DNA of 25,147 bases. It comes from a virus (taxonomy: Duplodnaviria; Heunggongvirae; Uroviricota; Caudoviricetes). The first letter of the stretch is position 1; every line of letters starts with the position of its first letter. This document shows positions 618-24,825 of this stretch, one piece after another. The translations under genes were made by a program, and so were the position numbers. The stretch lies in IMG/VR virus record IMGVR_UViG_2740892230_000012; one strand, written 5' to 3'. The notes below the pieces were generated by a model, which ran no database searches, was not told the origin of the DNA, and worked only from the letters and a program-made list of their open reading frames with translations.

Positions 618-645
618 NNNNNNNNNCAACAGATAACGAGCCAGC

Positions 646-832
646 TTATATACGTCCTTTAAGATAAGTCAGTCCTGGATGAAACCAGTAAGCCGGCACT
701 TTTTTAAAGGGCGGATTATCAAAATCACGAAGAAGAGCCTCCCGCACAACTGCATCCTTGTCCGCACCACTGGCCAGCGCTTCAATCTCAGCAGCTATCT
801 GCAGATATCCCATGCAACGGCCAACGCGCTTC
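646..832 (-). CDS. hypothetical protein X, C-terminal fragment (copy 2, cut by N-gap at 833)
   Basis: Variant copy of 430..617; translation ...PAYWFHPGLTYLKGRI-stop. Confidence 0.35.
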
Positions 833-842
833 NNNNNNNNNN

Positions 843-1713
843 CGAGGCCAGATACTGCGAGGTGGTTTTGCCCTTAATGGTGATGTCTTTTTCCGTCACC
901 CAGCCACCATTACGNNNNNNNNNNTGAGGCCAGATACTGCGACGTGGTTTTGCCCTTAATGGTGATGTCTTTTTCTGTCACCCAGCCACCATTACGCTGT
1001 ATCTGAACCAGCAGGCGGACTTCCGACGGATTCCNNNNNNNNNNCTGTATCTGAACCAGCAGGCGAACTTCCGACGGATTCCTGTCTCCCTTTGAGGTGG
1101 TTTCCACCAGTGCCTGTACACCGAAGGTAAAGCGCAGACGGTCGATGTTTGCCGACGTGATGGTCCGGGTGATCGGCGNNNNNNNNNNGCCGAAAGTAAA
1201 ACGCAGACGGTCAATGTTTGCCGACGTGATGGTCCGGGTGATCGGCGNNNNNNNNNNACCGAAGGTAAAGCGCAGACGGTCGATATTTGCAGACGTGATG
1301 GTCCGGGTGATCGGCGTGTCATATTTCACTTCCGTACCCAGCACCGTCTCGGAGCCGGAGGATTCAAATCCCTCCGGCGGAGTCTGCTCCTGCTCACCAG
1401 CCCGGAACACCACCGTGACACCGGCGATGTTGGTATTCCCATCACTGTCCAGCACCGGCGTACTGTTCAGCAGCANNNNNNNNNNTGTCTGCTCCTGCTC
1501 ACCGGCCCGGAACACCACCGTGACGCCGGATATATTGGTATTCCCCTCACTGTCCAGCACCGGCGTACTGTTCAGCAGCACGCTTTTTAATCCATCCACC
1601 GGACCTTCAACCGGCCCTTCGCTGATGGCATCGATCACACTCAGCAGCTGCGTGGACTTCAGGTTGTCCTTCGCTTCGCGCGGGGTATGCCCCTTACTGC
1701 TGCCTTTACCCAT
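843..1713 (-). CDS. J: tail tip host-specificity protein J, N-terminal part only (several allelic segments separated by N10 gaps)
   Basis: Translation MGKGSSKGHTPREAKDNLKSTQLLSVIDAISEGP... matches my recollection of the lambda J N-terminus almost residue for residue; the remainder of J is absent, the reading frame stops at an assembly gap. Confidence 0.85.
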
Positions 1714-1773
1714 TCCTCACGCTCCATAAATGACAAAACCGCCCGCAGGCGGTTTCACATAAAACATTTTGCA

Positions 1774-3087
1774 TCAGCGACCAATCACCACAACCTGACC
1801 ACCGTCCCCTTCGTCTGCCGTGCTGATCTCCTGAGAAACCACGCGTGACCCCACGCGCATTTCACCGTACAGAACCGGCAGAACATTGCCCTGGGCAACC
1901 ATGTTATCCANNNNNNNNNNGACCACCCGCGACCCCACGCGCATTTCACCGTACAGAACGGGCAGAACATTGCCCTGGGCAACCATGTTATCCANNNNNN
2001 NNNNCCGCGACCCCACACGCATTTCACCGTACAGAACAGGCAAAACATTGCCCTGAGCAACCATGTTATCCAGTGAGGAAAAATAGGTGTTCTGTTTGCC
2101 GTTATCTGTACTGGCTGCCGTGGACGTCCTGGCTTTCGGTGCCAGCATCTGCGCCACACCGCCCAGGATCATACTGGCCCCTGCCGNNNNNNNNNNGAGC
2201 ACCATACTGGCACCGAGAGAAAACAGAATGCCGGTCATACCACCGGCACCAATGGCAGCCCCCCATGTTGCAAGAGTGGCTCCGGCGGTAAAGAATGATC
2301 CGGCAATGGCGGCTGCCCCCAGAACAATCTGGAATACGCCCCCTGACTTGGCCCCGGCGACTCTGGGAACAATATGAATCACAGCGCCGTCAGGCAGAAC
2401 CTCATGTAACTGCGCCGTCAATCCGGACGTGCTGACGTCCCGCCCGGCAATCCGTANNNNNNNNNNGACAATCTGGAATACACCACCTGACTTGGCCCCG
2501 GCGACTCTGGGAACAATATGAATCACAGCGCCATCAGGCAGAGTCTCATGTAACTGCGCCGTTAACCCGGACGTGCTGACGTCCCGCCCGGCAATCCGTA
2601 NNNNNNNNNNTGTACTTGCTGCCGTGGGCGTCCTGGCTTTCGGTGCCAGCATCTGAGCCACACCGCCCAGGATCATACTGGCCCCTGCCGCATACATGCC
2701 CGATACAGCCGCGGCACCCAGCCAGCCCACAGGGTTCCACCATGCCACCGCAATCAGCGCCGCCCCCAGCACCACCTGAAACACACCGCCACTTTTAGCT
2801 CCCGCCAGACGCGGCACGATATGGATCACGGCACCATTTGCCAGCGGCTCATTAAGACGAGCAGACAATTCGGTTTCACCTGCATCACGCCCGGCAATGC
2901 GCACCTGATACCAGCCGTCGCTCAGTTTCTGACGAAACGCCGGGAGCTGTGTGGCCAGTGCCCGGATGGCTTCAGCCCCCGTTTTCACACGAAGGTCGAT
3001 GCGGCGACCAAATCGTTGTAAATCCCCGTAAAGGCAGATGCGCGCCATGCCCGGTGACGCCAGAGGGAGTGTGTGCGTCGCTGCCAT
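1774..3087 (-). CDS. I: tail assembly protein I (length inflated by duplicated allelic segments)
   Basis: MAATHTLPLASPGMARICLYGDLQRFGRRIDLRVKTGAEAIRALATQLPAFRQKLSDGWYQVRIAGRD... and C-terminal ...VVSQEISTADEGDGGQVVVIGR match recalled lambda I; the 437-aa ORF reads through six N10 gaps. Confidence 0.85.
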   Translation of the reverse strand: MAATHTLPLASPGMARICLYGDLQRFGRRIDLRVKTGAEAIRALATQLPAFRQKLSDGWYQVRIAGRDAGETELSARLNEPLANGAVIHIVPRLAGAKSGGVFQVVLGAALIAVAWWNPVGWLGAAAVSGMYAAGASMILGGVAQMLAPKARTPTAASTXXXXRIAGRDVSTSGLTAQLHETLPDGAVIHIVPRVAGAKSGGVFQIVXXXXRIAGRDVSTSGLTAQLHEVLPDGAVIHIVPRVAGAKSGGVFQIVLGAAAIAGSFFTAGATLATWGAAIGAGGMTGILFSLGASMVLXXXXAGASMILGGVAQMLAPKARTSTAASTDNGKQNTYFSSLDNMVAQGNVLPVLYGEMRVGSRXXXXDNMVAQGNVLPVLYGEMRVGSRVVXXXXDNMVAQGNVLPVLYGEMRVGSRVVSQEISTADEGDGGQVVVIGR

Positions 3088-4172
3088 TTGTCGGTATACC
3101 TCTCTCGTTTGCTCAGTTGTTCAGGAATATGGTGCAGCAGCTCGCCGTCACCACAGTAAATGGCGGCATGATTCGGCACCGATGAACCAAAACAGCACAG
3201 CAGCACATCGCCCGNNNNNNNNNNGTACCTCTCTCGTTTGCTCAGTTGTTCAGGAAGATGGTGCAGCAGCTCGCCGTCGCCGCAGTAAATTGCGGCGTGA
3301 TTCGGCACTGATGAACCAAAACAGCACAGCAGCACATCGCCCGGCTGCGCCTCTGTCAGTGCGACACGGTAAAAACCAGTAGCCTCCATATTGTCAAGAT
3401 AGAGATTCTGACCGTGACGCCACCAGTCATNNNNNNNNNNTGCCGCTGACAACGGCACCTGATACAGCCCCGTCGCCTCCAGATTATCCAGATAGAGATT
3501 CTGGCCGTTACGCCACCAGTCATCCTCACGATGAAAGTCCGGCATCTCAATCCCCGCCAGATGATAAGCATNNNNNNNNNNTATCCCCGCGATGAAAATC
3601 CGGCATCTCAATTCCCGCCAGATGGTAAGCGTCCCGGAACAGCGTGTAACAGTCCGTTACCCCGTGCTCAAAGCGCCGCCCGGTGAGATGCGGCACACAG
3701 CGGAACTTATGAATCGTCCCCCGGCAGACCAGCCACCACGGCAAATCACTCTGCACCTGCAGCCGCCGGTCGGCCTCACTCAGCCAGGGCAGACCACCGG
3801 GGTGGCTGTGGACCAGCGCCACAATCTCACCCTGCATTTCTGCCTGCAGCCAGTCTTCCGGCGACATACGGAAATACGCCTCCGGCTCACCGGAGATATT
3901 CACGCAGGGAAANNNNNNNNNNTCCCTGCATTTCTGCACTCAGCCAGTCCTCCGGCGACATCCGGAAATACTCCTCCGGCTCACCGGAGATATTCACGCA
4001 GGGAAANNNNNNNNNNCTCCGGAGCCATCCGGAAATAATCCTCCGGCTCACCGGAAATATTCACGCAGGGAAAATATCTTTCCCCCTCCGGCGCTCTCAC
4101 CACGAAGCCGCACGACTCCGCTGGCGCACATCGCCGGGCGTGCGCCAGAATCGCTGATTCTGTCTCTGTCAT
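2985..4172 (-). CDS. K: tail assembly protein K (inflated by duplicated segments)
   Basis: MTETESAILAHARRCAPAESCGFVV...GEPEAYFRMSPEDWLQAEMQGEIVALVHSHPGG... through ...WRASAFTGIYNDLVAASTFV match recalled lambda K; the 3-prime end overlaps the I start, as in lambda. Confidence 0.85.
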
Positions 4173-4177
4173 GGGAT

Positions 4178-4901
4178 TTACTGCGAAAGTTTGTTAATGG
4201 AAAGGAAGCTGCCAAAGTTGCCGACGTTATTGCGAAACTTACAGCCGCTCAGGCATTTGCTGCATTTATCCTTCGTGATATCGGACGTCGGCTGGTCATA
4301 TTCATCCGCGACTGCCGGACCGTGATAACCGCACTCATCACCGCGATAGGTCCAGGTGCAGGTGTTGGCCAGCATGATACGCCCCGGAAAAACAGCACCA
4401 TCCGTTTCCGTCGGTGTGGAGAGCACAAAGGAGGCACTGACCGCACTCANNNNNNNNNNTGGACAGTACAAAGGAGGCACTCACCGCGCTCAGTTCGCTG
4501 CACTGCTCGATGCGCCAGCGGCTGATCACCTCCTGCTCCGGATCGGCGTCGCTGTTTCCGTTGACGAAGTTCACCGCATCCAGAAAACGGGCGTAAACCT
4601 TACGCCGGACCACCGTTCCGCCGACCAGACTCTGCAGATCTTCCGCCATCCCGGTGACCATACCGTACAGGTTAGAAACCGTCAGCGTGGGGCGCGTACT
4701 GGTGCCTTTGCCATTCAGTTCAAAACCACTCCCCTGAATGGGATACGGCTGATACTGTCGCCCCTGCCAGGTGACCGGCTCACCTTTTTCGTNNNNNNNN
4801 NNTCCACCGACCTCTGTCAGGTCGATTTCCCAGAGCACCACGCTGGCCGACTGCTCCGCACGGGTGCATTCATTCAGTGTTTCCTGCCGGATATCCTGCA
4901 T
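4178..4901 (-). CDS. L: minor tail protein L (lambda-like allele, two internal N10 gaps)
   Basis: MQDIRQETLNECTRAEQSASVVLWEIDLTEVGG... and C-terminus ...CKFRNNVGNFGSFLSINKLSQ match recalled lambda L. Confidence 0.85.
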
Positions 4902-5233
4902 CAGTTCACCACCTGTTCAAACTCTGCGCTGAACTCAACACGCAGCATACTGACCCGCGACGACCATTTTGCGCAGGTCACCTTTATCTGCCGCCACTCA
5001 TAAGGCGGCGTCCACAGAAAGGCTTTCCAGCCCCCGTGCTCTTCCAGAAACGACTCCAGTACCGTGGCCTCCTCACGGGGGACAGAAAGCGTCACGCTGT
5101 ACGTTTTCAGGTTGGCATTCAGCCCGGCAGGCGCTCGCTGAGAATAGCCATCACCAAAGCGCACCTTTCTTACAGAAGGGGCCGAAGCCACATCCATACC
5201 GGGTTTCACTTTCCAGCGGAAGGTCTTCATCAT
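4901..5233 (-). CDS. M: minor tail protein M (lambda-like allele)
   Basis: 110-aa ORF MMKTFRWKVKPGMDVASAPSVRKVRFGDGYSQRAPAGLNANLKTYSVTLSVPREEATVLESFLEEHGGWKAFLWTPPYEWRQIKVTCAKWSSRVSMLRVEFSAEFEQVVN, essentially my recollection of lambda M. Confidence 0.9.
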   Translation of the reverse strand: MMKTFRWKVKPGMDVASAPSVRKVRFGDGYSQRAPAGLNANLKTYSVTLSVPREEATVLESFLEEHGGWKAFLWTPPYEWRQIKVTCAKWSSRVSMLRVEFSAEFEQVVN

Positions 5234-5522
5234 CCACCTCCGGAGAACAGACCACCATCGCGCATCTGTGCCTGAATTTCATCACGGGCACCCTTGCGGG
5301 CCATGTCATACACCGCCTTCAGAGCAGCCGGACCTATCTGCCCGTTCGTGCCGTCGTTGTTAATCACCACATGGTTATTCTGCTCAAACGTCCCGGACGC
5401 CTGCGACCGGCTGTCTGCCATGCTGCCCGGTGTACCGACATAACCGCCGGTGGCATAGCCGCGCATCAGCCGGTAAAGATTCCCCACGCCAATCCGGCTG
5501 GTTGCCTCCTTCGTGAAGACAA
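5230..5522 (-). CDS. H: tape measure protein H, C-terminal fragment (lambda-like allele, cut by N-gap at 5523)
   Basis: ...VFTKEATSRIGVGNLYRLMRGYATGGYVGTPGSMADSRSQASGTFEQNNHVVINNDGTNGQIGPAALKAVYDMARKGARDEIQAQMRDGGLFSGGG matches the recalled lambda H C-terminus. Confidence 0.75.
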
Positions 5523-5532
5523 NNNNNNNNNN

Positions 5533-5770
5533 TGTAACCATAAGGCGGCGTCCACAGAAAGGCCTTCCAGCCCCCGTGCTCAGCCAGAAACGACTCCAGC
5601 GCCGTGGCCTCCTCACGGGAGACAGACAGCGTCACGCTGTACGTTTTCAGGTCAGCGTTCAGCCCGGCAGGCGCACGCTGGGAATAGCCATCACCAAAGC
5701 GCACCGCCCTGACGGAAGGAGCCGATGTCACATCCATCCCGGGTTTCACTTTCCAGCGGAAGGTTTTCAT
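5533..5770 (-). CDS. M: minor tail protein M, N-terminal part (second allele, cut by N-gap)
   Basis: MKTFRWKVKPGMDVTSAPSVRAVRFGDGYSQRAPAGLNADLKTYSVTLSVSREEATALESFLAEHGGWKAFLWTPPYGY, a close variant of lambda M. Confidence 0.75.
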
Positions 5771-6421
5771 CGTCCACCTCCGGAGAACAGACCACCATCG
5801 CGCATCTGTGCCTGAATTTCATCACGGGCACCCTTGCGGGCCATGTCATACACTGCCTTCATCATCTGTGGACCTGGCAGACCATTCGTACCGTCGTTCT
5901 GAATCACCACGTGATTGTTCTGATTAAAATTAATGCCTTCCGTCCGCCGCATCTGCGCCGGACTTCCGGCACCGCCCACATAACCACCTTCCGCATAGCC
6001 CCGCATCAGGCGGTACAGATTGCCGACACCAATCCGGCTGGTCGCCTCCTTCGTGAAGACAAACTCCCCGCGATGAACAATTCCCGCAGGTTCATATTTA
6101 CCCCCCGTCCCCGTAAATCCCCCGGTCGCGAAATGGAAGTTCGCCGCCGCAGCCTGAATGGCCGTCCCCGTGGAGGCAGACGCACCACCACCGAAAGCAC
6201 CGCCAATGGCGCTGCCGATACTCCCGACTATCCCCACCATCGCCTGCTTCAGAAAAATCTCTGTCAGCATGGAGAGCACAGAACGGGTGAAACCACGCCA
6301 GTTCTGTTCGCTGCCGGTCAGCATCGCTGCCATATTCTGTGCAATACCGTCAAAGGTCTGCGTGGCCGCGTTTTTAACCTGCGAAAAACTGTCCGTCGCA
6401 CTTTCCGCCCACTCGCCCCAG
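5767..6421 (-). CDS. H: tape measure protein H, C-terminal ~190 aa (second lambda-like allele)
   Basis: MAAMLTGSEQNWRGFTRSVLSMLTEIFLKQAMVGIVGSIGSAIGG...GGKYEPAGIVHRGEFVFTKEATSRIGVGNLYRLMRGYAEGGYVGG... matches recalled lambda H C-terminal region. Confidence 0.8.
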
Positions 6422-6431
6422 NNNNNNNNNN

Positions 6432-7073
6432 GAACTTACAACCGCTCAGGCATTTGCTACATTTATCCTTCGTGATATCGGACGTTGGCTGGTCATATTC
6501 ATCCGCGACCGCCGGACCGTGATAACCGCACTCATCACCGCGATAGGTCCAGGTGCAGGTGTTGGCCAGCATGATACGTCCCGGAAAAACGGCACCGTCC
6601 GTTTCCGTCGGCGTGGAGAGCACAAAGGAGGCACTGACCGCACTCAGTTCGCTGCACTGCTCGATGCGCCAGCGGCTGATCACCTCCTGCTCCGGATCGG
6701 CGTCGCTGTTTCCGTTGACGAAGTTCACCGCATCCAGAAAACGGGCGTAAACCTTACGCCTGACCACCGTTCCGCCGACCAGACTCTGCAGGTCTTCCGC
6801 CATCCCGGTGACCATGCCGTGCAGGTTAGAGACCGTCAGTGTCGGACGGGCAGCACTGCCCTTACCGTTCAGTTCAAATCCCGTCCCCTGAATGGGGTAT
6901 GCCTGATACTGCCGCCCCTGCCAGGTGACCGGCTCACCTTTTTCGTTCTGCTCATTACAGAAAAAATAACGTTCACCACCGACCTCTGTCAGATCGATTT
7001 CCCAGAGCACCACCTGGGCTGACTGAGTAAGGCGTGTCGTCTCATGATGTGTTTCCTGTGAAATATCCTGCAT
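6432..7073 (-). CDS. L: minor tail protein L (second allele, 3-prime end cut by N-gap)
   Basis: MQDISQETHHETTRLTQSAQVVLWEIDLTEVGGERYFFCNEQNEKGEPVTWQGRQYQAYPIQGTGFELNGKG... is a divergent but clear lambda L homologue. Confidence 0.8.
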
Positions 7074-7082
7074 CAGGGCCTC

Positions 7083-7412
7083 CTATGCCACGACCTGTTC
7101 AAAATCTGCCGTTATGGTTACCCACAGCGCCCCCACGCTTGCCGACCATTTACGACAAACCACCCTGATCGGCTTCCAGTCATAAGGTGGCGTCCACTGA
7201 AATGCGCGGACGCCACCGTGCCGTTCCAGAAAGGCTTTTAAAGATGGGTGTTCGCATTTACGAACACGTATCGTCACGCTGTAAGTCGACAACTGGTTAT
7301 TCAGTCCCGCCGCACGACGCTGTTCATAACCATCGCCCAGCTTCACTGTCACCACTTTCGGCTCTGATACCACATTCATATCCGGGCGCACTTTCCAGTG
7401 AAACGTCTCCAT
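7083..7412 (-). CDS. M: minor tail protein M (divergent third allele)
   Basis: METFHWKVRPDMNVVSEPKVVTVKLGDGYEQRRAAGLNNQLSTYSVTIRVRKCEHPSLKAFLERHGGVRAFQWTPPYDWKPIRVVCRKWSASVGALWVTITADFEQVVA; same architecture as lambda M at roughly half identity; start ATG overlaps the upstream H stop (TAATG). Confidence 0.85.
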   Translation of the reverse strand: METFHWKVRPDMNVVSEPKVVTVKLGDGYEQRRAAGLNNQLSTYSVTIRVRKCEHPSLKAFLERHGGVRAFQWTPPYDWKPIRVVCRKWSASVGALWVTITADFEQVVA

Positions 7413-8210
7413 TACCGATATGCTCCACTTAACCGACCACCATCACGGGCCTGCTGTTGCATAAAGTCCGCTGCTGCTTTTTTCCCGAGGTCATAAACCA
7501 CCTTCAGGGCAGCCGGACCTATCTGCCCGTTCGTGCCATCGTTATTGATCTCGATGTTGTACTGCGGGGCAAACATCGCCATACCTGAACCACCAATATC
7601 CGCCACAACCCCCAGCTTACCGTCAGCACCACGACGCAGAGGCAGAATGGCTTCAGGCCCAGCTTCCCCCATCACACCTGCACCTTTTGCAAAAGCAAAA
7701 AACGTCGGACGGTTAANNNNNNNNNNTGGCAGAATGGCTTCAGGTCCAGCTTCCCCCATCACACCCGCGCCTTTTGCAAAAGCAAAAAACGTCGGACGGT
7801 TAACCACCGTGCCACTGTAGCGACTCAAATCAGCCGACTGATAAACACCGCCATCAGCATTGGCTACAAAATCAAAAGGCAGCGCGGAAGCAATGCCTTT
7901 TACCGCTTTCATTAAAGCTATCTGAGCCATGATTCTGGACATATCTGACAGCACAGAAGAGGTGAAGGATTTGAAATTGAGTTTGCCTGTAGTACAGAAT
8001 GTCGCCAGCCAGTCACTCATGCTACTGAACGCAGACGTGAACAACTGTTCCACTGTCCCGGCTGTGTTATCCGCATTCTCAGTGACATTCTGGAGTGCAC
8101 GCAGGACTCCGTTTTTCCAGTCACCCTGAGCAATTTCAAGCTGTTGCCAATAACGGCGATTCTCATTCAGTTGTCGGTTCAGGCTCTCCGTCAGCGCCTG
8201 CTCGGCCTTT
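7412..8210 (-). CDS. H: tape measure protein H, C-terminal region (divergent allele, internal N-gap at 7717)
   Basis: ...TTGKLNFKSFTSSVLSDMSRIMAQIALMKAVKGIASALPFDFVANADGGVYQS...NNDGTNGQIGPAALKVVYDLGKKAAADFMQQQARDGGRLSGAYR parallels the lambda H C-terminus; 8054..8210 is a variant copy of 8460..8600. Confidence 0.75.
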
Positions 8211-16323: not shown

Positions 16324-18021
16324 CTACTGTCGTTTCGTTGCGGCACTGCTGCCTCCTTTATCACTGGCCGGATCGGTATCAAATACCAGGTCCAGCTTGC
16401 GGTTTTCATCAATTTCGGCCTTGCGCCGACGTTTGACATCATCCGGATTACGACCACCTGCACGTACCCAGTCTGATTCTGTCGCCGCTCCACCACGAAT
16501 CTGGATTTTCCAGGCCTCAGCCTCCTTAACAGGGTCAATCCACGGCATCACCGGTCCGGAATACACCGCGGTATACAGTGAAGAACGGTCAAGATCGCGG
16601 GGTAGCCTGATAACACCGGATGCCACAGCCTGTTTCAGCCAGGCACGATACATCGGGCGGGTGACGGCACCAATAAACCAGTCCTGCAGGATCAGGTAGC
16701 CATCAGTGGATTCAACCAGCTCCTGACGCTGGGCGCTGTAAGTGCCGTTATAGTTGCGCGCTGTACTGGAAAAACTCAGACGACTGCCCGCCGCCACGGC
16801 ACGCAACTGAGCATTACGAAAAGTTTCAAGGTTAGGATTTGGGCGATCCGACTTCACCATTCCGATTTCTTCGCCGGGTTTCAGATCGTCGTAAATAATG
16901 CCCGGCTGAATGGTAAGCTCGCGTTCATTCTCCTTGCTGTCATTACCATCCGTTTCATAGCTCTGTCCGTCGCCTTTGCGGATGTACATCCCCAGAGCAG
17001 NNNNNNNNNNAGCCGCCACTGCACGCAACTGACCATTACGAAAAGTTTCAAGATTAGGATTGGGGCGATCCGACTTCACCATTCCGATTTCTTCGCCGGG
17101 TTTCAGATCGTCGTAAATAATGCCTGGCTGAATGGTAAGCTCGCGTTCCTTATCCTTGCTGCCATTACCATCCGGTTCATAGCTCTGCCCGTCGCCTTTG
17201 CGGATGTACATCCCCAGAGCAGCGGCGACCCTTGCTGCAGTCAGCTCAGAATCTTCATACTCTTTCAGGGCGCTGAGGCGGATCAGCACACCGGACAATA
17301 AAGACGTCCCGCGCATCTGGTGCAGACGGCGAACAAATTTAAGATGCAGCATTCGCTCTGCATCCACTTCTTTGGTTTCCATCTGCCGCCCGGATACGGG
17401 ACGGCTTTTATACACCAGATATTTTTCGGGACGCCCCCAGTCATCAACAAACACGCCCTGATTCAGCCTGTTGCTCTCATCACTGGTCATGGGAATAAAG
17501 TCCGGCTCGAGCGCCTCCAGCCAGAAATGAACACCGGCAGAAGGCGTCAGGCTGTTTATGCGCCCGGAAACCATCTGGGCAAACACCTCACCATCGCGCA
17601 GCCAGGTACGCAGCATCAGACGTTCCAGCATCGGACGGGTAAACTGCCCGGTGACTTCCGGACTGACAGACCATTCACTCCATCGGGTGCGTATCTCCGC
17701 TGCCAGATCACGGGCAATGGCCCCATTGCGTAATACCGGATGTGGCTCGACAATAATCCCGTTTTTCCCCACCACCCGTTCTTCCAGCTTGTCAAATACA
17801 CCAATGACCAGATCGTGGTTGTTATCAAGGTAACGGGCCTGCTCACGTAACGACACGGCCCCGTACTGGCTTAACTGGTCGGCAGTTCGGTTCTCCCGTC
17901 GGGCTTTGTGTGTCCGCGTCGTTTTTACGGCCTCATAAGCCTGAATCACCGCACGGGAACGCAGCCTTGCCGCTTTCCATCCTGGTGAAAAAACGCCAAT
18001 CACATCATCAAGAATTGCCAT
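16324..18021 (-). CDS. portal protein, lambda B-like (internal N-gap with duplicated ~70 aa segment)
   Basis: Start MAILDDVIGVFSPGWKAARL... overlaps the W stop (ATGA); size and position between W and the protease fit a lambda-family portal; the track ORF's upstream 24 codons are rejected. Confidence 0.85.
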   Translation of the reverse strand: MAILDDVIGVFSPGWKAARLRSRAVIQAYEAVKTTRTHKARRENRTADQLSQYGAVSLREQARYLDNNHDLVIGVFDKLEERVVGKNGIIVEPHPVLRNGAIARDLAAEIRTRWSEWSVSPEVTGQFTRPMLERLMLRTWLRDGEVFAQMVSGRINSLTPSAGVHFWLEALEPDFIPMTSDESNRLNQGVFVDDWGRPEKYLVYKSRPVSGRQMETKEVDAERMLHLKFVRRLHQMRGTSLLSGVLIRLSALKEYEDSELTAARVAAALGMYIRKGDGQSYEPDGNGSKDKERELTIQPGIIYDDLKPGEEIGMVKSDRPNPNLETFRNGQLRAVAAXXXXALGMYIRKGDGQSYETDGNDSKENERELTIQPGIIYDDLKPGEEIGMVKSDRPNPNLETFRNAQLRAVAAGSRLSFSSTARNYNGTYSAQRQELVESTDGYLILQDWFIGAVTRPMYRAWLKQAVASGVIRLPRDLDRSSLYTAVYSGPVMPWIDPVKEAEAWKIQIRGGAATESDWVRAGGRNPDDVKRRRKAEIDENRKLDLVFDTDPASDKGGSSAATKRQ

Positions 18022-18233
18022 CAGAACCTCGCCAGCCGGTACCCGGGATGCCCCCGTCGTCGTGTAATCAGAGCAGCAAGGCGGCGCTCCCACTCCTGCC
18101 GTCCCTGCCGGATCTCAGATAAGTTTTCCATGGTCATCTGCTGACCATTAAAAGTGACGGATTTTCCGTCCAGCACCGCCATTTCAGCTTCCATATAACG
18201 CTGAATCATGGCTTCGATATCATTCTGGTTCAT
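18021..18233 (-). CDS. W: head-tail joining protein, gpW-like
   Basis: 70 aa MNQNDIEAMIQRYMEAEMAVLDGKSVTFNGQQMTMENLSEIRQGRQEWERRLAALITRRRGHPGYRLARF; lambda W-like size and C-terminal RRRG motif; GGAGGA upstream; start overlaps the TerL stop (ATGA). Confidence 0.7.
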   Translation of the reverse strand: MNQNDIEAMIQRYMEAEMAVLDGKSVTFNGQQMTMENLSEIRQGRQEWERRLAALITRRRGHPGYRLARF

Positions 18234-20329
18234 AACCATCCTCCGGAAGTCAGCCAAGGGTTAACATCGTCAGTTACTGTTTTCTTCCGTTTTTGTTTTT
18301 TAACAGGCGTGGATACCGGTTCCGGTGAGGATGACGGTTCGGTACTGTCCTGGACACACTCCAGCCAGGTTTCCCGGCTCGCCCACTCCGGTGCATCCGG
18401 CCAGCGGATCTTTTCGTATCCATGCAGAATGACCAGCGCCTCGGCATACACCATCAGGTCAAAAGCTTCGTTGGCACCGCGACCCGGCTTACTCCATTTC
18501 CCGTCACTGCTCCGCTCTTCATACGTCAGTTCGTCGTAAAACCAGCTCCCCAGCCAGTCAGGGAAATGCACATAGCCTGGACCTGGCGAGTCACGCCATA
18601 ACGCGTTATTCACCCGGTCTTTCAGGGCATCCGTCTGAAGAAGCCAGAGCGGCACATCACCTGCGGCCTGCGCCCGGCGGCCCGTTCGTCCGGTGTTATC
18701 AGGGAATGTACGGCTGATCAGTTTTGCGCGCCGGATGCTGTCGCCCTTAAACAGGTAAATACGTTTACCAAGGCCATCACGACGGCAACGACGCCAGAAT
18801 TTATAGGCATTATCAGTGACCCCGTCTTCACCGCCGGAGTCCACCGCCATTGCCATCAGTCGCATTTGTTGAGAAGGATCGGAGGCCAGCGGCCAGCTTT
18901 TATGAAAAACATCCGTCAGCAGGACATCCCAGTCTTCCGGATAGCTGGCCGGATCAATTCGCTGGCTCTCCCCGTCGCAGTCACTGCGCAATGACTGCGT
19001 GATGTTGTAACGATCAATAATCCAGCGTTCGCCACGGCTGCCATAGCCCGTTACCTGAACCACAAAACGGCGATGACGTCCCGCCTGCACATCCACTGTC
19101 GCCACAAGGAAATTAACGCCATCCGGAACACTGCGGGAAGGAACTGGCTCTGCCCGCTGCTCAAGCAGTTCACTTTTTCGTTGCTCCATGCTGGCACGAG
19201 GAAGATAAGGCAATCCCCAGTCGGTGTTGATAACCGCCCTGAGTGTTTCTTCGCTTCCTGTCGCTTCATACTCCTGTTCTGCAGTCAGTAATTTGTAAAC
19301 CAGTTGCGCCCAGGTCTGATACGCAGCAGCTGGCCCTTCCATCCAGAAACTGGCGATACGGGAGCGGCGCGGTTCACCGGAAACGTTGCCGTTACGATCA
19401 ATGACCTGACCTTCACGCAACCAGACTCCTGCACTATTGAGCTCACGCTTTTTCTCCGCAGTGATAATGCCGCTGCAGTGCGGGCAAAGTAGATACGCCG
19501 CCTCACTGGCTTTAAAGGGATCCGGTTCATTACGGTAGCCGGTCATGGCATCCATGGCTGGCTGAAAATATTCACCGCAGTGCGGACATGGCCAGTACCA
19601 GCGGCGGCGGTCACCACGATTGTAAAGGGAAAGAATACCAGTCGTCGGTGGCGCTTCATGAGGCGACTTACGTCGCCATTTGCTGTCGCAGATGTCACGT
19701 CCCGGCGAGCTCTCCACCAGAGTCATCCCGGCGGACATAAATGTGGTGGTACGTTTTGAGGCCAGGGAGAAACCATCACCCTCGCTGTCGATATTCTCCG
19801 GAAAACGGTCGTAATCGGTTAAGGCGACAAACCGGTAATCCGACGACGACATAATGTTGACCGAGGGCCAACCAATTTTAAGGAACGAGCCATCCCTGAA
19901 CGTCTTATCATGAACATTATTGTCGTTACGACGTGGACTCATTCTTTTCTTTACCGCCGCACTGCTTCTGAACGTTCTGTCGAGGCGCTTTTTAGAATGC
20001 TCGCGGGCCTTATCTTCGGTCATCTGCACAACGAGCATGTCCGAAGGATCGCAAACGATGGTATAGACAATCCATCCATCGATCAGACCAATGGTCTTCC
20101 CTGTTCGCGCAGGACCAACAAAAATCACCGCATCGTATTCACGCGATGCCAGGCAGTTCATGGGCTCAATGATGTAGGGTGTCAGTTCAGGATCCCATGG
20201 CACCGAGTTACCAGCCCCCTTGGGAACACGCATGAATTTTTTAACAGCCTCCGAAATCGGCATGCGACGTGGTGGGGAAAATCCTGCCGATATGTCCCTT
20301 CCCAAATTTCGGGCTGATGAAAAACCCAT
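18230..20329 (-). CDS. terminase large subunit (GpA-type)
   Basis: 699 aa with Walker A GPARTGKT near the N-terminus and a CPHCGE motif; perfect AGGAGG Shine-Dalgarno 4 nt upstream of the ATG at 20329. Confidence 0.9.
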   Translation of the reverse strand: MGFSSARNLGRDISAGFSPPRRMPISEAVKKFMRVPKGAGNSVPWDPELTPYIIEPMNCLASREYDAVIFVGPARTGKTIGLIDGWIVYTIVCDPSDMLVVQMTEDKAREHSKKRLDRTFRSSAAVKKRMSPRRNDNNVHDKTFRDGSFLKIGWPSVNIMSSSDYRFVALTDYDRFPENIDSEGDGFSLASKRTTTFMSAGMTLVESSPGRDICDSKWRRKSPHEAPPTTGILSLYNRGDRRRWYWPCPHCGEYFQPAMDAMTGYRNEPDPFKASEAAYLLCPHCSGIITAEKKRELNSAGVWLREGQVIDRNGNVSGEPRRSRIASFWMEGPAAAYQTWAQLVYKLLTAEQEYEATGSEETLRAVINTDWGLPYLPRASMEQRKSELLEQRAEPVPSRSVPDGVNFLVATVDVQAGRHRRFVVQVTGYGSRGERWIIDRYNITQSLRSDCDGESQRIDPASYPEDWDVLLTDVFHKSWPLASDPSQQMRLMAMAVDSGGEDGVTDNAYKFWRRCRRDGLGKRIYLFKGDSIRRAKLISRTFPDNTGRTGRRAQAAGDVPLWLLQTDALKDRVNNALWRDSPGPGYVHFPDWLGSWFYDELTYEERSSDGKWSKPGRGANEAFDLMVYAEALVILHGYEKIRWPDAPEWASRETWLECVQDSTEPSSSPEPVSTPVKKQKRKKTVTDDVNPWLTSGGWL

Positions 20330-20337
20330 TATTCCTC

Positions 20338-20865
20338 CTAGAGACTCTCTCCTTCCTCATCAGGAATTAATTCAGCAGCACAAGCCTCGTAGGATTTTTC
20401 CTGAAGAGTGTATCGCAGGTCATCAATGGCCTGCTGTACAACGCCGACGGCCTGAGGAGTCAGGGCGCAATCGCGTTCAAGAACATCCGGAATTGTCTCC
20501 AGAACCTGGACGACAGCCTTTCTCATGGACGAATAGACGATGACTACTTCATCAACGGGGATGAGTTTTCGCTGCTCCTTTTCCAGCTTGATCCTTTCAT
20601 TTTCAGACTGGTACCAGTCCTTTCTCTCTTTCGGCTCCATACGGGATGGATCATGAACAGAGTCTGCTGCCTCATGCTTCACACTAAACAGGGCAGGCCC
20701 GACATGCTGCAGGGCGTAAACGGGGTTCCCCCTGACAGTCGCAGCCACAGGAGTGTTGGCCGCGAGGAGCCGTTTTTTTACTGTGTCCCGGTGAAGCCCA
20801 AAGGCCTCGGCGATTTTAAAAACACTCCAGTAATAAGCATCACCGATCCCGCTCACATTTGACAT
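20338..20865 (-). CDS. terminase small subunit (Nu1-like, N-terminal HTH)
   Basis: MSNVSGIGDAYYWSVFKIAEAFGLHRDTVKKRL... has a helix-turn-helix, with an acidic C-terminus; sits directly upstream of TerL with its stop inside the TerL Shine-Dalgarno. Confidence 0.75.
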   Translation of the reverse strand: MSNVSGIGDAYYWSVFKIAEAFGLHRDTVKKRLLAANTPVAATVRGNPVYALQHVGPALFSVKHEAADSVHDPSRMEPKERKDWYQSENERIKLEKEQRKLIPVDEVVIVYSSMRKAVVQVLETIPDVLERDCALTPQAVGVVQQAIDDLRYTLQEKSYEACAAELIPDEEGESL

Positions 20866-20879
20866 AAGCAACTCCATCT

Positions 20880-21100
20880 GGCAGGTAAAAATCAGGTTTA
20901 TTTATATATTTCAATTAATTGCAAACTGGTCTAATGACAGGGAGAAAAAAATATTGTACAGGTGAAAAGAGAAATAACTTTTAATTATCAATAAATTACC
21001 AAACATGCTGCCGCCGCCATGGAAATGCAAAAACTAGCCTTTTTCCGCGACGCTCCCGCCCCGTGGCAGGCCACCCCACCGGGAGGACCCGTCAGCCTGA
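20880..21100. promoter_or_regulatory. putative cos / packaging initiation region
   Basis: Position between Rz and terS corresponds to lambda cos; AT-rich tract at 20880..21000 next to a GC-rich segment; the lambda cosN 12-mer was not found, so the cut site is unassigned. Confidence 0.3.
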
Positions 21101-21458
21101 CAGCCATGACGAACGTCTGATACAGCACCCTGCATGAATGGCATCGGGATAATCCAGAAAGGAATAGCATCGTACCCACAAGAATCTGTGTGAGTGTCCT
21201 GTTTCTTCCACCCCCGCACAGGACTGGCGAGCATGAGGGACAAACCCGCGAATCATTAGCGCGGTAAAAACCCGGTGTGCATCGTTTTTGATTATTCCCG
21301 NNNNNNNNNNTCGCAGAAGGAGTTCCCCGTCGGGCTACGGTCTCTGTTAATACGGGAATACGGCGACGATACAGCGCATGATGTGTCAGGCTTGAATACC
21401 TTTATCCGTTAAAAGGGATATCAGTTAAGTTATCCCGTGTAGGGTATAAGCCATTATC

Positions 21459-21487
21459 AAAGCCACTCTGTAGGGAGTGGCTTTTGT
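21459..21487 (+). terminator. terminator-like hairpin on the plus strand in the Rz-cos intergenic region
   Basis: AAGCCACTC-TGTAGGG-GAGTGGCTT followed by TTTGT; no ORF of 60 aa or more in the vicinity. Confidence 0.35.
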
Positions 21488-21693
21488 AATGGCAATAAAA
21501 AGCCCCGCGAATACGAGGCTAAATCCTGGTATTTGTAATGACTGGCTCTTATCTCAACGCAGCCCCTTACCGCGCGCAAGATGCTCAATATCAAGCATCA
21601 GCAATGAGATGTTTAATCTGGATTCACTCCAGAAGTGATAACCACCATGTCTACAGAGCCAGATGTGAAGGATGATGAGTAAAATTATCGCTA

Positions 21694-22299
21694 TCATCGA
21701 AGGCATTGCGTCCTGATGTATTCCTGAAGCGTTCTCAGTGCTGTTTGGTCGCTGATGATTCCGTCCCGGATACCGAGAACGTTTCGTCCAGCAACTGGAG
21801 AGAGTTCGACGGTGGCATCATTGCCCATGCCGGAGGCGCTGGAGGTTTCGGCTGAGGATGGCACAGGGCATTTTCCTTTGACGAACACCCGACCACCATT
21901 ATCAAGCTTGCGCCGAAGAGCATCATTTTCAGCTTTCGCATCAGCTAACTCCTTCGTGTATTTAGCATCGAGTGCATCAGCAGAACGCTGGCGCTGCTGC
22001 ATGTCAGTAATGGTGGCGGTCGCCTGCTTCAGCTCACTGACTTTTTTATCTCGCTGTTCTTTGTAGGCGATGGCGTTATCACGGTAATGATNNNNNNNNN
22101 NTGCATCGAGCGCAGCAACATCACGCTGACGCATCTGCATGTCAGTAATTGCCGCGTTCGCCAGCTTCAGTTCTCTGACATTTTTGTCGCGCTGGGCTTT
22201 GTAGGTAATGGCGTTATCACGGTAATGATTCAGCCCCAGACTAAGCACACCACAGGCTACCAGCAGGACAATAATCACCACACACAGAACACGGTTCAT
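21694..22299 (-). CDS. Rz: i-spanin Rz (contains N-gap at 22092 with a duplicated allelic segment)
   Basis: [83 protein letters not shown]... matches recalled lambda Rz through the N-terminal half. Confidence 0.85.
21735..21941 (-). CDS. Rz1: o-spanin Rz1, lipoprotein embedded in the +1 frame of Rz
   Basis: [44 protein letters not shown]... has a lipobox (VVGC) and a proline-rich mature region, fully nested in Rz as in lambda. Confidence 0.75.
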
Positions 22300-22300
22300 A

Positions 22301-22387
22301 TCACCACCAACGGATTGCCCAGACCAGAACAGCAATGGCCACAATACGAATGGCAAATGCCATTGCCCGAATAAGTTCAGCACTCAT
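22301..22387 (-). CDS. hypothetical 28-aa hydrophobic peptide directly upstream of Rz
   Basis: [28 protein letters not shown]; its stop TGA lies 1 nt before the Rz ATG; below the ORF-track length cutoff, found by manual translation. Confidence 0.25.
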
Positions 22388-22517
22388 CTTTTTAAAGTTC
22401 ACGATTTCAGCGCAATGACCAGTTTTGCCAGCCCATACAGCATCGGAGACACAGCAATACCGACCGCCACCCACTTAATAGCAAAAGCCAGCGCTCTGCT
22501 GATGTCATCAGTCACTG

Positions 22518-22649
22518 TCACCCCAGCAGCCCCGACGAAGACAACATCACCCAGGCGAGGGACAGAAAAAGAGCAACCAGCATTAGTGAAAATGAAATAC
22601 CGACAATCACACACAGGACCTTTGCCGGCGTTATGAGTTTGTCTGACAT
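22518..22649 (-). CDS. hypothetical 43-aa single-pass membrane peptide
   Basis: MSDKLITPAKVLCVIVGISFSLMLVALFLSLAWVMLSSSGLLG; AAGGGG Shine-Dalgarno 5 nt upstream of the ATG. Confidence 0.3.
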   Translation of the reverse strand: MSDKLITPAKVLCVIVGISFSLMLVALFLSLAWVMLSSSGLLG

Positions 22650-22651
22650 AG

Positions 22652-22747
22652 CTACCCCTTAATTGCCACAATTAACTGGGATACTACCCATAAAAAAGGG
22701 ATGCTCCAGACCAGCAAAAATTTCCAGTTTGGTAATTGACTAATCAT
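22652..22747 (-). CDS. hypothetical 31-aa single-pass membrane peptide
   Basis: MISQLPNWKFLLVWSIPFLWVVSQLIVAIKG; GGGAG about 9 nt upstream; its stop overlaps the Shine-Dalgarno of the next peptide. Confidence 0.3.
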   Translation of the reverse strand: MISQLPNWKFLLVWSIPFLWVVSQLIVAIKG

Positions 22748-22810
22748 GAGTCGCAACTCCCTAATCAGTTTGCTAAAATCAATCAAGGCAGCCTCCCATA
22801 GCTTACTGCC

Positions 22811-22858
22811 ATAAAAACAAAACCCCGCTTGCTGCCAACAAACGGGGTTTTTACTTTT
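22811..22858. terminator. bidirectional intrinsic terminator-like hairpin downstream of the endolysin
   Basis: AAAACCCCGCTTGCTGCCAACAAACGGGGTTTTTAC: CCCCG/CGGGG stem flanked by A-run and T-run. Confidence 0.5.
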
Positions 22859-22941
22859 ATTCACTTACGTTTCGCCAGTTCGCAGGATTTCGTGTTATCC
22901 GCCCGCGTGGCCATGCCTTATTTTTCAGCAAAATATTCTGC

Positions 22942-23624
22942 TTATCTGTCGATACCCCAGCACGCCAGCGCGCTCTCCTGGTCACGACGGGATACCTGAC
23001 CGTAGCAGTTGTTTGAACGAATACGGCAGTCTCTGCCACCGTCCTTAATCCACCNNNNNNNNNNCTCACTTACATTTTGCCAGTTCGCAGGATTTCATGT
23101 TATCCGCCCGCGTGGCCATGCCTTATTTTTCNNNNNNNNNNCTTGGCCAACGTCATTTATTAGCAAAATATTCTGCTTATCTGTCGATTCCCCAGCACGC
23201 CAGCGCGCTNNNNNNNNNNTGCTCCCCTGCGATCACCAGCATTAATTCGTCTGTAAAACGTCGACGGGAAACACTTACCGGGACCAATGTTGTACGGACA
23301 GAATGACGCGATCCCCGCTTTCTGGGGTTCGGTCAATGGCACTCTGATGTTTTTCTCCACCCATGCCAGCGCCTTATCACGTTCGATGGCGTTAACCTGG
23401 TCGCATTTCTCCTTCGACAACTTCATGCCCGGGACGACAGGTTTACCATCCACCAGAATGGCACCGCGACAGATGGTCCAGATACCCGCGCCATCACGGT
23501 ATGCCGTGGTGTGGTTACCTTCCTTTTCATCCAGAAACTGGTCGAGAATGTCAGGCGCAGGCGCACCAGCGGCAATCAGCGCCAGAACGGCAGCCGACAG
23601 GCCGTATTTGATTTTGGTGTTCAT
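22942..23624 (-). CDS. SAR endolysin, GH24 T4-lysozyme family (span inflated by three N10 gaps and duplicated C-terminal segments)
   Basis: MNTKIKYGLSAAVLALIAAGAPAP is a Gly/Ala-rich weakly hydrophobic N-terminus typical of signal-arrest-release domains; catalytic spacing E-8aa-D-5aa-T in DEKEGNHTTAYRDGAGIWTICRG; C-terminus ...WIKDGGRDCRIRSNNCYGQVSRRDQESALACWGIDR. Confidence 0.85.
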
Positions 23625-23660
23625 GGATATATTAAATATTCAGCCGCTGTCCCTGGCCCA

Positions 23661-23847
23661 CTAAATACGCACTTTAAGATAAGTCAGCCCCGGATGAAGC
23701 CAGTAAGCCGGCACTTTTTTAAAGGGTGGAGTATTAAAATCACGAAGAAGAGCCTCCCGCACAATTGCATCCTTATCAGCACCACTGGCCAGCGCTTCAA
23801 TCTCAGCAGCTACCTGCAGATATCCCATGCAACGGCCAACGCGCTTC
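23661..23847 (-). CDS. hypothetical protein X, C-terminal fragment (copy 3), directly upstream of the endolysin
   Basis: ...CMGYLQVAAEIEALASGADKDAIVREALLRDFNTPPFKKVPAYWLHPGLTYLKVRI-stop, 36 nt before the endolysin ATG; visible part is soluble and not holin-like; N-terminus lost in the N-gap at 23848. Confidence 0.4.
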
Positions 23848-23857
23848 NNNNNNNNNN

Positions 23858-24232
23858 TCCTCACTGTGCTGGTGCGATGGAGGTGTTACTTTCCCATTTT
23901 CTGAGATGGTTATTTTCCCAGCATCACCGGATACAACAAAGGATGGCCGGTTACACTCCCATTCCTGATCTTTATCAGGTGCAGACGCAATAAAATAACG
24001 TTTATTTCCTTCCTCTCCGGCACTTTTAACCGTAATGGAGTACTCAGACTGCAGACAAGACGCCTCTTTTTCTGACCGCAGTGTTGACGGCGGCATCTTC
24101 AGAGAACCAGTAATTCTTCCCGGTAGCTTTCCTTTGTAGGTTATCAACACATCCTGCGCCTCTAAAATTATGGGGCGCTTTTCCGGCAACGGTTCGTTCC
24201 CTTCACATAACCCGGCAGCAACATCCATGAAA
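23858..24232 (-). CDS. hypothetical Y-family protein fragment (between N-gaps)
   Basis: ...FMDVAAGLCEGNEPLPEKRPIILEAQDVLITYKGKLPGRITGSLKMPPSTLRSEKEASCLQSEYSITVKSAGEEGNKRYFIASAPDKDQEWECNRPSFVVSGDAGKITISENGKVTPPSHQHSE; paralogous to 24243..24463 and 24826..25104. Confidence 0.4.
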
Positions 24233-24242
24233 NNNNNNNNNN

Positions 24243-24463
24243 ATCAGCCCCTGCTTTTTATTGTTCTTCAGGTAATCAATGGCAAATTCAATGAGCGCCT
24301 CACTATGCTGGTGCGATGGCGGTGTTAATTTCCCATTTTCTGAGATGGTTATTTTCCCGCCATCTCCGTATACAACAAAGGATGGCCGGTTACACTCCCA
24401 TTCCAGGTCACTGAAATTATCATTATGAATACTGAAACACTCTGCGAGATTTCTGCTCATCAC
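24243..24463 (-). CDS. hypothetical Y-family protein, N-terminal part (cut by N-gap at 24233)
   Basis: MMSRNLAECFSIHNDNFSDLEWECNRPSFVVYGDGGKITISENGKLTPPSHQHSEALIEFAIDYLKNNKKQGL; GTG or ATG start 38 nt after the upstream gene stop. Confidence 0.4.
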
Positions 24464-24497
24464 TTTCCGGCAATAATCGTAAAACGCAGCAAACTGC

Positions 24498-24748
24498 TCA
24501 TCGCGGCGTTTTTTTTTCAGGCTGCTGAAGATGCTCTTTCAACCAGGAAGCGCAGCTTAGATTCGCCGCGCGATCAAGAATAGCTTCTTTCATTTCGTCT
24601 GCTGCAAGCACCTCATTTTTTGTTGGGGTACTTTTTTTCAATTCAGCGATATAGCACTCCAGTTTTTCAATGCGTGATTCAACATCATCTTTTTCTGACC
24701 GCAGCGTTGACGGAGGCATCTTCAGAGAACCAGTAATTCTTCCCGGTA
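24498..24748 (-). CDS. hypothetical Y-family protein, C-terminal part
   Basis: ...GSLKMPPSTLRSEKDDVESRIEKLECYIAELKKSTPTKNEVLAADEMKEAILDRAANLSCASWLKEHLQQPEKKTPR-stop; contains an A9 homopolymer on the coding strand. Confidence 0.4.
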
Positions 24749-24825
24749 NNNNNNNNNNCTGATTTTTGCGTTCATGGATATTTATCAGGGTTTATCGATT
24801 TCAAATCCCTGGATATGTTAAGTCT

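Follow-up and report, generated by a model that had tools for sequence, protein, structure and literature searches.

Runs of ten N in a lambdoid prophage record, very probably left by the serial write-out of allelic bubbles from a k = 35 de Bruijn graph

Near-identical late genes carried by several prophages are known to break short-read assemblies, as stated for EHEC (PMC7175801), and in assemblers of the Velvet type a graph node is represented by the final nucleotides of its successive k-mers (PMC3488206). The stretch of DNA analysed here (the window, 25,147 nucleotides) is the whole of record CCPR01000046.1, from assembly GCA_000752855.1, an ordinary NCBI genome assembly; the record was traced through its artefactual portal protein of 565 aa. 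It contains a lambdoid late region, in which J-I-K-L-M-H-T-G-V-U-Z, head, portal, terminase and lysis genes are colinear with those of known lambdoid phages; over the non-redundant part, it is 95-97% identical at the DNA level to phages cdtI and mEp460 and to E. coli prophages. The region is interrupted by many short runs of N, a pattern which is an ordinary assembly artefact and not biology. The record is best read, with a probability of about 0.92, as the serial write-out, by a short-read de Bruijn assembler operating at k = 35, of allelic bubbles from similar lambdoid prophages.

By direct count the window holds 36 N runs, each of exactly 10 N, which delimit 37 segments (S00-S36), ranging in size from 59 to 4706 bp. 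The runs are distributed as 23 in positions 1-8220, 6 in 8221-21310 and 7 in 21311-25147. The number and length reported by the initial annotation were found to be correct, while its starting position of 618 was off by one.

617..24758, no strand: span containing all 36 10-N runs, read as placeholder joins between assembly-graph nodes
617-626: first N run
24749-24758: last N run

By self-BLAST and end-anchored comparison, the end of a segment was found to be 78-97% identical to the start or the end of the next one, and never exactly so. No exact suffix-prefix overlap longer than 2 nt was detected between neighboring segments, which rules out simple contig-end overlaps. Mapping on gap-free prophages revealed that at 31 of the 36 junctions the neighbors are alternative or overlapping copies, 63-97% identical, of one reference interval; positions 843-24978 of the window span just 17.5 kb of strain E4. 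Four junctions conceal small real gaps (S18|S19, 28 bp; S26|S27, 4 bp; S28|S29, 7 bp; S30|S33, 16 bp) and one, S01|S02 (833-842), connects unrelated sequence. The statement that nearly every N run is flanked by near-identical copies therefore applies to the 31 junctions, and not to the four gaps of 4-28 bases or to the single join of unrelated sequence.

Exact matches between segments show a sharp preference for one length. Nineteen maximal matches measure exactly 34 nt, and for 18 of these the end coincides with a segment 3' end; at the neighboring lengths there are none of 33 nt and one each of 32, 35 and 36 nt. No 34-nt inter-segment match starts at a segment 5' end. Twelve end-anchored pairs have an identical tail of exactly 34 nt, never longer, and in 11 of them the following segment begins at the mismatching base. 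The length of the short nodes (59, 70, 74, 84 and 134) equals the variant span plus 34, and all the real hidden gaps are shorter than 34 nt, as expected where a 34-nt node prefix is dropped. As a control, four intact natural haplotypes were compared: 3 of 178 matches were 34 nt long, 101 were of 41 nt or more, and no spike was seen. When k = 35 unitigs of three natural haplotypes were simulated with Velvet-style labels, 35 matches of 34 nt were obtained, 34 of them terminating at the 3' end, and none longer. Segment boundaries are thus k = 35 de Bruijn node boundaries. The strict expectation that each 35-mer occurs once did not hold: 209 35-mers are shared, deriving from just 7 long common stretches (35, 36, 47, 62, 68, 81 and 118 nt). 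Because of these seven matches longer than 34 nt the segments cannot be strict k = 35 unitigs; certain graph nodes must have been output in duplicate, and the long common stretches were not counted against k = 35.

A single path was obtained by removing N runs, 12 alternative segments and overlaps. This collapse reduced 21,249 bp to 16,670 bp, to be compared with 16,682 bp in a gap-free reference prophage; the redundant sequence amounts to about 4.3 kb of 21.2 kb, and the record exceeds its proper length by about 20%. Before collapse, J, I, K, L, H, G and portal each come in 2-4 pieces, whereas along the collapsed path every one of the 19 complete reference proteins can be aligned over its full length in a single frame, with 97-100% protein identity for most genes. 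The view of the record as a serialised multi-allele scaffold is borne out by the overlapping reference intervals, by the k = 35 node boundaries and by the 19 intact genes restored along one path.

The initial annotation had also maintained that reading frames crossing the gaps are in frame merely by chance. This part was wrong in detail, since in 10 of the 15 transitions along the path the added length is divisible by 3 (P = 0.0085). The frame is kept above chance because the variants lie at third codon positions (53 of 68 differences between alleles share one codon phase) and because k-1 = 34 and 10 are both 1 modulo 3. Long artefactual ORFs therefore survive.

Bubbles are dense in the tail genes, where 2 or 3 alleles per site are found.

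843..8210, minus strand: dense bubble chain S02-S22, over the J N-terminus, I, K, L, M and the H C-terminus
1120..1316 (1120-1178, 1189-1247, 1258-1316), minus strand: three 59-bp J alleles, at the S04 end, in S05 and at the S06 start
1774..3087, minus strand: artefactual 437-aa ORF labelled 'I', which crosses five N runs and strings I alleles together
4460..7716, minus strand: two full alternative haplotype paths in series, over the K C-terminus, L, M and the H C-terminus
8191..10989, minus strand: artefactual 932-aa ORF labelled 'H', which crosses N runs

Within the chain, the retained path is S02-S04-S06-S07-S09-S12-S13-S15-S17-S21-S22, and S03, S05, S08, S10, S11, S14, S16, S18, S19 and S20 are redundant alternatives. 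The three J variants noted earlier were recovered at the coordinates listed, S04 and S05 being identical over exactly the last 34 bases at the 3' end, and the three I variants at 1837-1910, 1921-1994 and 2005-2072. The two serial paths differ in type: S18, S19 and S20 are similar to the prophage types O104:H4 and L007, S21 to the types L001 and L143. The real tape-measure gene is distributed over S23, S22 and S21, with duplicated overlaps. The 437-aa I and the 932-aa H are indeed artefacts, as had been proposed, the collapsed path giving 215 and 1018 aa, respectively.

The head module is almost free of bubbles. It is restricted to a single prophage type, which is close to phages cdtI and mEp460.

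8221..21300, minus strand: long nodes S23, S26, S27 and S28, coding for H, T, G, V, U, Z, a ClpP-major capsid fusion, portal, large terminase and DUF1441
11371-11440 and 11451-11527, minus strand: small alternative nodes S24 and S25, written between S23 and S26
16789..17222 (16789-17000 and 17011-17222), minus strand: 212-bp portal segment present twice with 11 mismatches, N run at 17001-17010

Despite the interposed S24 and S25, S23 and S26 actually abut. The duplicated portal segment, already noticed in the initial annotation, turns the true portal of 502 aa into a 565-aa product, with a 70-aa near-duplicate around XXXX.

Bubbles appear again in the lysis region, to which two segments at the opposite end of the record are also related.

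21311..25147, minus strand: lysis-region bubbles S29-S36, over Rz, small ORFs, endolysin, an upstream hypothetical gene and a ydfR-like gene
1..832, minus strand: S00 (1-616) and S01 (627-832), two more alleles of the spacer upstream of endolysin

Here S30 has S31 and S32 as nested alleles, S33 and S35 abut, and S34 and S36 are alternative structural alleles. The Rz segment is duplicated, as claimed, at 21964-22091 and 22102-22229. For endolysin the claimed duplication is real at the 3' end (S30 versus S32), while the S00/S01/S33 triplet is located outside the gene, just upstream. S00, S01 and S33 (23220-23847) have a common homologous end point, yet the first two are located 23 kb away, adjoining J, which makes the join at 833-842 either false or unexplained. 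A perfect match to S00 (100%) lies in the O104:H4/55989 prophage (L183, 20001-20616), directly followed there by the 5' end of S35. The position of S00 and S01 beside J falls outside what the model accounts for.

The alleles appear to be natural sequences, as judged from differences falling in one codon phase and from segments matching gap-free contigs at 100% (S00, S02, S05, S08, S14, S22, S24, S25 and S31). Differences between copies total 105, of which 57 are transitions and 48 transversions; all types are represented, mostly at third codon positions. Programmed variation of the DGR type was rejected, since this spectrum is not adenine-specific. Groups of segments resemble distinct prophage types: S02, S05, S07, S12, S14, S21 and S22 are similar to L143; S08, S11 and S18 to L124; S00 (100%), S19 (99%) and the 5' end of S35 (100%) to the O104:H4/55989 prophage, which has another head module. 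No single one of 5,426 complete genomes carries all the alleles at 100%, and S20 tops out at 97.1%; it may be either a rare allele or an in-silico mosaic. No 10-N runs were found in the loci of about 170 gap-free relatives, from viral and metagenome contigs. A search of genome contigs by DNA pattern gave no match, and three artefactual proteins were absent, by exact look-up, from a collection of 15 billion proteins.

From these observations, the way in which the record was very probably produced can be described. The sequenced DNA would contain at least three lambdoid prophage copies, with tail-tip genes (J, I, K, L, M and the H C-terminus) and lysis genes 80-97% identical and with different head modules, so that the common tail-tip and lysis regions would give rise to chains of bubbles in the graph. 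The scaffolder would arrange nodes by estimated position; alternative alleles occupying the same position would receive an estimated distance of zero or less, and would for this reason be written serially, separated by a minimum placeholder of 10 N. With every k-mer of a node contributing just its last nucleotide to the output, the following node would start at the first variant base and end 34 nt after the last variant. As a consequence of such a serial write-out the N runs are not physical gaps, the extra 4.3 kb are redundant, and ORFs crossing the joins are artefacts. The assembler is most likely Velvet or a derivative. A minimum gap of 10 N and the re-use of repeat nodes during repeat resolution would fit Velvet behavior; a literature search for the Velvet 10-N minimum gap, and for the accession, yielded nothing usable.

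The same artefact could derive from alleles of two or more E. coli strains, in a mixed culture, a contaminated sample or a metagenome bin, as the graph signature is independent of allele origin and each allele is found in many different strains and metagenome contigs. This origin is considered unlikely, given that there are never more than three alleles per site, that the source is a genome assembly of the usual NCBI kind, and that bubbles are limited to modules known to be common to different lambdoid prophages, whereas mixed strains with the same prophage would yield them throughout. In addition, one set of alleles corresponds to a prophage whose head module is unrelated, and single complete E. 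coli genomes routinely carry 2-8 copies of the M/H segment and match the window at a median of 4 places, and at most 19. The initial annotation had named co-resident prophages or strains as the sources; prophages fit better, on account of the number of alleles per site and of the distinct known prophage types, and we infer that the alleles probably belong to co-resident prophages of one isolate. There is also a slight chance that some bubbles reflect real heterogeneity of the culture, recombination or gene conversion between co-resident lambdoid prophages having produced mosaic sub-populations, of which S20 could be one.

Two further explanations concern the joins themselves. Fixed-length N spacers are typical of tools which order contigs after assembly, and the order of the segments tracks the reference almost perfectly from S02 to S36, as it would if exported contigs had been arranged on a reference genome and joined by 10-N spacers. 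Such an origin is nevertheless very improbable: exported contigs keep k-1 flanks at both ends, and 34-mers would be expected at 5' ends, where the segments start instead at the variant base; segments of 59-84 bp are normally filtered from contig files; and S00 and S01 are out of reference order. The remaining explanation takes the copies as genuine tandem partial duplications within one prophage, and the N runs as short unsequenced stretches. The frame-preserving transitions would on their face agree with tolerated in-frame duplications, but they are explained by third-position variation and by the arithmetic of 34 and 10. Genuine tandem duplication was rejected on gene integrity, as seven essential genes (J, I, K, L, H, G and portal) would be disrupted or contain internal near-duplicates. 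It is also unseen in gap-free relatives (about 180 loci, in addition to complete-genome matches), and boundaries placed exactly 34 nt past the last variant are a property of k-mers rather than of biology; hardly any weight is left to it. The serial write-out of bubbles at k = 35 is thus retained as the preferred reading.

The value of this result is practical, not biological. CCPR01000046.1 is unusable as is, its prophage region being overstated by the redundant length, and false proteins derive from it: the 565-aa portal with its internal repeat of 70 aa, H versions of 922 and 932 aa and the 437-aa I. At least three haplotypes are mixed in the record, which would lead gene catalogues, phage taxonomy and recombination analyses astray. 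An open frame is no reassurance, since the 10-N spacer, k-1 = 34 and third-position variants together keep the artefacts in frame, and these can evade quality checks based on frameshifts. The combination of fixed N runs, exact (k-1)-mers at 3' ends and variant bases at 5' ends may be reused as a diagnostic, which recognizes such scaffolds, recovers k and permits the collapse of the record.

Compared with Velvet-type scaffolds, the record shares an odd k-mer size (35), a fixed 10-N placeholder, retained nodes of 59-84 bp and some repeat nodes written twice; its nodes lack the k-1 prefix and keep the k-1 suffix, as in the published definition (PMC3488206). Derivatives such as MetaVelvet or Oases would give an equal pattern. 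With respect to the fragmentation of lambdoid prophages usual in short-read E. coli assemblies, the fragments are here chained into one record rather than left as separate contigs, which inflates its length and creates fused ORFs. As for the prophage itself, gene order from J to the lysis genes is the same as in the lambdoid phages cdtI, mEp460 and PhiR40_1 and in the E. coli E4 prophage (NZ_CP104516.1). It differs from these in a Z-like gene which is just 78.6% identical, and in a lysis cassette which resembles instead that of STEC strain 2013C-3264; both features are ordinary lambdoid mosaicism.

The 360 N of the window fall into 36 runs of uniform length (exactly 10 N each), beginning with the one at 617-626 and ending with that at 24749-24758. 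Both the count and the length given in the initial annotation were reproduced; of the span assigned there to the pattern (618-24758), the end was correct, while the start was one base off, the true one being 617, and the rest of the description was accurate. Cutting at the runs yields 37 segments, numbered S00 to S36 from left to right and ranging in size from 59 to 4706 bp. Exact suffix-prefix overlaps between adjacent segments never exceed 2 nt; by self-BLAST, nearly every segment end finds a counterpart, 78-97% identical, at the start or end of the segment one or two places further on. When mapped on the E. coli E4 prophage (L001), which is gap-free and served as reference, the segments tile one lambda-like late region over overlapping intervals, as in the examples reported below. 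S10, S11 and S18-S20, missing from this haplotype, were placed on overlapping intervals of other gap-free contigs, and the lysis-region segments on STEC strain 2013C-3264 and an O104:H4 prophage.

Examples of segment positions on the E4 reference
S04: 6073-6206
S05: 6148-6206
S06: 6149-6365
S27: 17070-17816
S28: 17606-21894

The nature of the sequences flanking each run was evaluated from these placements. Alternative or overlapping copies of one interval are found at 31 of the 36 junctions, in agreement with the flanking near-identical, non-identical copies originally described; four conceal small real gaps, and one, at 833-842, joins unrelated sequences. At S02|S04, S23|S26 and S33|S35 the true neighbors abut exactly, and alternative nodes are inserted between them in the record.

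Real gaps hidden by N runs
S18|S19: 28 bp
S26|S27: 4 bp
S28|S29: 7 bp
S30|S33: 16 bp

A collapsed path, carrying one allele per site, was built by joining S02, S04, S06, S07, S09, S12, S13, S15, S17, S21, S22, S23, S26, S27, S28 and S29, trimming overlaps, removing N runs and 12 alternative segments, and closing the two gaps of 4 and 7 bp with reference sequence. The 21,249 bp at 843-22091 were reduced in this way to 16,670 bp, versus 16,682 bp in the reference.

Accounting of the collapse of 843-22091
Sequence kept: 16,659 bp
Alternative segments removed: 2,941 bp
Overlaps trimmed: 1,379 bp
N runs removed: 270 bp
Total accounted: 21,249 bp

Each of the 19 proteins that are complete in the reference can be aligned over its whole length to the collapsed path, in one frame. 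Before collapse, J, I, K, L, H, G and the portal are each broken into two to four pieces, and the portal ORF has a 70-aa near-duplicate on either side of XXXX. Since genes split in the raw window are whole on the collapsed path, the 437-aa I and 932-aa H are artefactual, as already suspected when they were first noted.

Proteins on the collapsed path
I: 215 aa
K: 247 aa
L: 232 aa
M: 109 aa
H: 1018 aa
T, G, V, U and Z: among the 19 full-length proteins
ClpP-capsid fusion: 675 aa
Portal: 502 aa
Large terminase: 699 aa

The way in which the segments end carries a further signature. In end-anchored comparisons the later segment opens on a mismatching base, and in 12 segment pairs identity after the last difference extends for exactly 34 nt, never more, and the earlier segment stops there, at its 3' end. 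When all maximal exact matches shared by two different segments are counted, 19 have a length of exactly 34 nt, with none of 33 nt and one each of 32, 35 and 36 nt; 18 of the 19 stop at the 3' end of a segment and none begins at a 5' end. Short segments (59, 70, 74, 84 and 134) have a length equal to the variant span plus 34. Four intact natural haplotypes of the same region, used as control, show no such spike, 34 nt being found in only 3 of 178 matches, 101 of which reach at least 41 nt. A k = 35 de Bruijn graph simulated from three of the four haplotypes, in which every k-mer of a unitig is represented by its last nucleotide, yields the same picture (35 matches of 34 nt, 34 of them at a 3' end, none longer). 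Nodes are defined by the last nucleotide of each k-mer in Velvet (PMC3488206). Because signature, control, simulation and node labelling match, the segments are read as nodes of a k = 35 graph, output in the window's + orientation by a Velvet-type scaffolder. The four hidden gaps are all smaller than 34 nt, which fits a node losing its 34-nt prefix after a gap. The runs of 10 N would be Velvet's minimum placeholder, written where two nodes are estimated to lie at a small or negative distance from each other. The overlapping intervals, the k = 35 signature and the recovery of intact genes by collapse bear out the proposal that an assembler wrote out allelic bubbles, i.e. alternative paths in its graph, one after another.

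Seven common stretches longer than 34 nt (35 to 118 nt) do not fit this scheme, including the five of 47-118 nt listed below, each shared by different segments. As they exceed k-1, some graph nodes must occur twice in the output, so that the segments cannot all be pure unitigs. Velvet's repeat resolution would be consistent with such twice-written nodes.

Exact repeats of 47-118 nt
4489-4606 and 6643-6760
5233-5313 and 5773-5853
4314-4381 and 6511-6578
16841-16902 and 17063-17124
2342-2388 and 2486-2532

Reading through a gap had been expected to be in frame only by chance. This expectation failed: of the 15 path transitions at joins in 843-22091, 10 insert a number of bases divisible by 3 (P = 0.0085). 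Overlap differences fall in one codon phase in 53 of 68 cases, mostly at third positions, so that the distance covered by the variants usually leaves a remainder of 1 on division by 3; k-1 = 34 and the 10 N leave 1 as well, and with the three remainders adding up to 3 the frame is kept. Serialised bubbles therefore tend to remain in frame and to generate long false ORFs. This period-3 pattern also shows the alleles to be natural sequences under purifying selection, rather than sequencing errors. Substitutions comprise 57 transitions and 48 transversions, with every type represented, a spectrum that gives no hint of programmed mutagenesis.

At least three haplotypes are recognisable, and S00, S02, S05, S08, S14, S22, S24, S25 and S31 have 100% matches in gap-free public contigs.

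Haplotypes recognised among the segments
Similar to the gap-free locus L143: S02, S05, S07, S12, S14, S21, S22
Similar to the O104:H4/55989 lambda prophage: S00 (100%), S19 (99.0%), 5' end of S35 (100%), S02 (100%)
Similar to the gap-free locus L124: S08, S11, S18

N runs are unevenly spread, with 23 in 8.2 kb of tail-tip genes, 7 in 3.8 kb of lysis genes and only 6 in the 13.1 kb that begin with H and take in the genes for tail shaft, head and packaging. This is explained by the O104:H4-type prophage, which carries an unrelated head module of the lambda E/D/C/B type, without close matches to S23, S26 and S28. Co-resident prophages and mixed strains had both been put forward as sources of the alleles. 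The former, within one isolate, are favored, since no site has more than three alleles, places matching the window are multiple in complete E. coli genomes (median 4, up to 19; 2-8 copies for the M/H segment), and lambdoid prophages are well documented as places where short-read assemblies break up (PMC7175801); a mixture of strains would also supply alternative alleles, and on these grounds is less favored. S20 (5533-6421), an allele of M and of the C-terminus of H, has a best match of 97.1% among 5,426 complete E. coli genomes, and reaches ~92% at best in the fetched IMG/VR loci, yet has exact 100-mers in common with these loci; either the allele is natural and rare, or it is a mosaic created in silico by the path taken through the graph.

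The unrelated junction involves S00 and S01 (1-832), which add two alleles of the spacer that lies upstream of the endolysin. Both terminate at the same homologous point as S33 (23220-23847), and are placed at the left end of the scaffold, adjoining a J fragment and 23 kb away from where homology would place them. The lambda-like prophage of E. coli O104:H4 2011C-3493 and 55989 contains S00 at 100% identity, and there the start of S35 directly follows S00, ~19 kb from J. The join at 833-842 is therefore either a mis-scaffold or a link not accounted for by the bubble model. Between the endolysin and holin regions, a 104-aa ORF on the opposite strand (106-420, +) corresponds to hypothetical protein WP_000551290.1 of the O104:H4 prophage (20106-20420 of its locus, L183), and may be a moron-like insert. 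The first ~80 nt of S36 (24759-24840) resemble the endolysin start and its upstream region, with 37 of 43 positions identical to the start of S00 (1-43), and are directly followed by ydfR-like sequence; this points to S36 as a putative further structural allele of the lysis cassette, without the ~0.8-kb insert seen in S33 and S35.

A look-up of the artefactual 565-aa portal led to the source: the window corresponds, over all its 25,147 bp, to the complete entry CCPR01000046.1 of NCBI assembly GCA_000752855.1. Among the genes called on this entry are the 565-aa portal itself, with the 70-aa near-duplicate around XXXX inside, an H of 922 aa and a capsid fusion of 677 aa, which also has XXXX in it. 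No paper mentioning the accession was found, and the artefactual proteins were not found in a large protein collection. The serialisation is a real property of the record and biologically nothing new; in practice, the record has to be collapsed before use. The Z-like minor tail gene (13045-13623) is, on the collapsed path, 78.6% identical to the E4 reference, with an indel, and its neighbors are 97-100% identical; a module swap of the usual mosaic kind seems likely here. Beneath the artefact lies the late region of an ordinary lambdoid prophage, with phages cdtI and mEp460 as close relatives.
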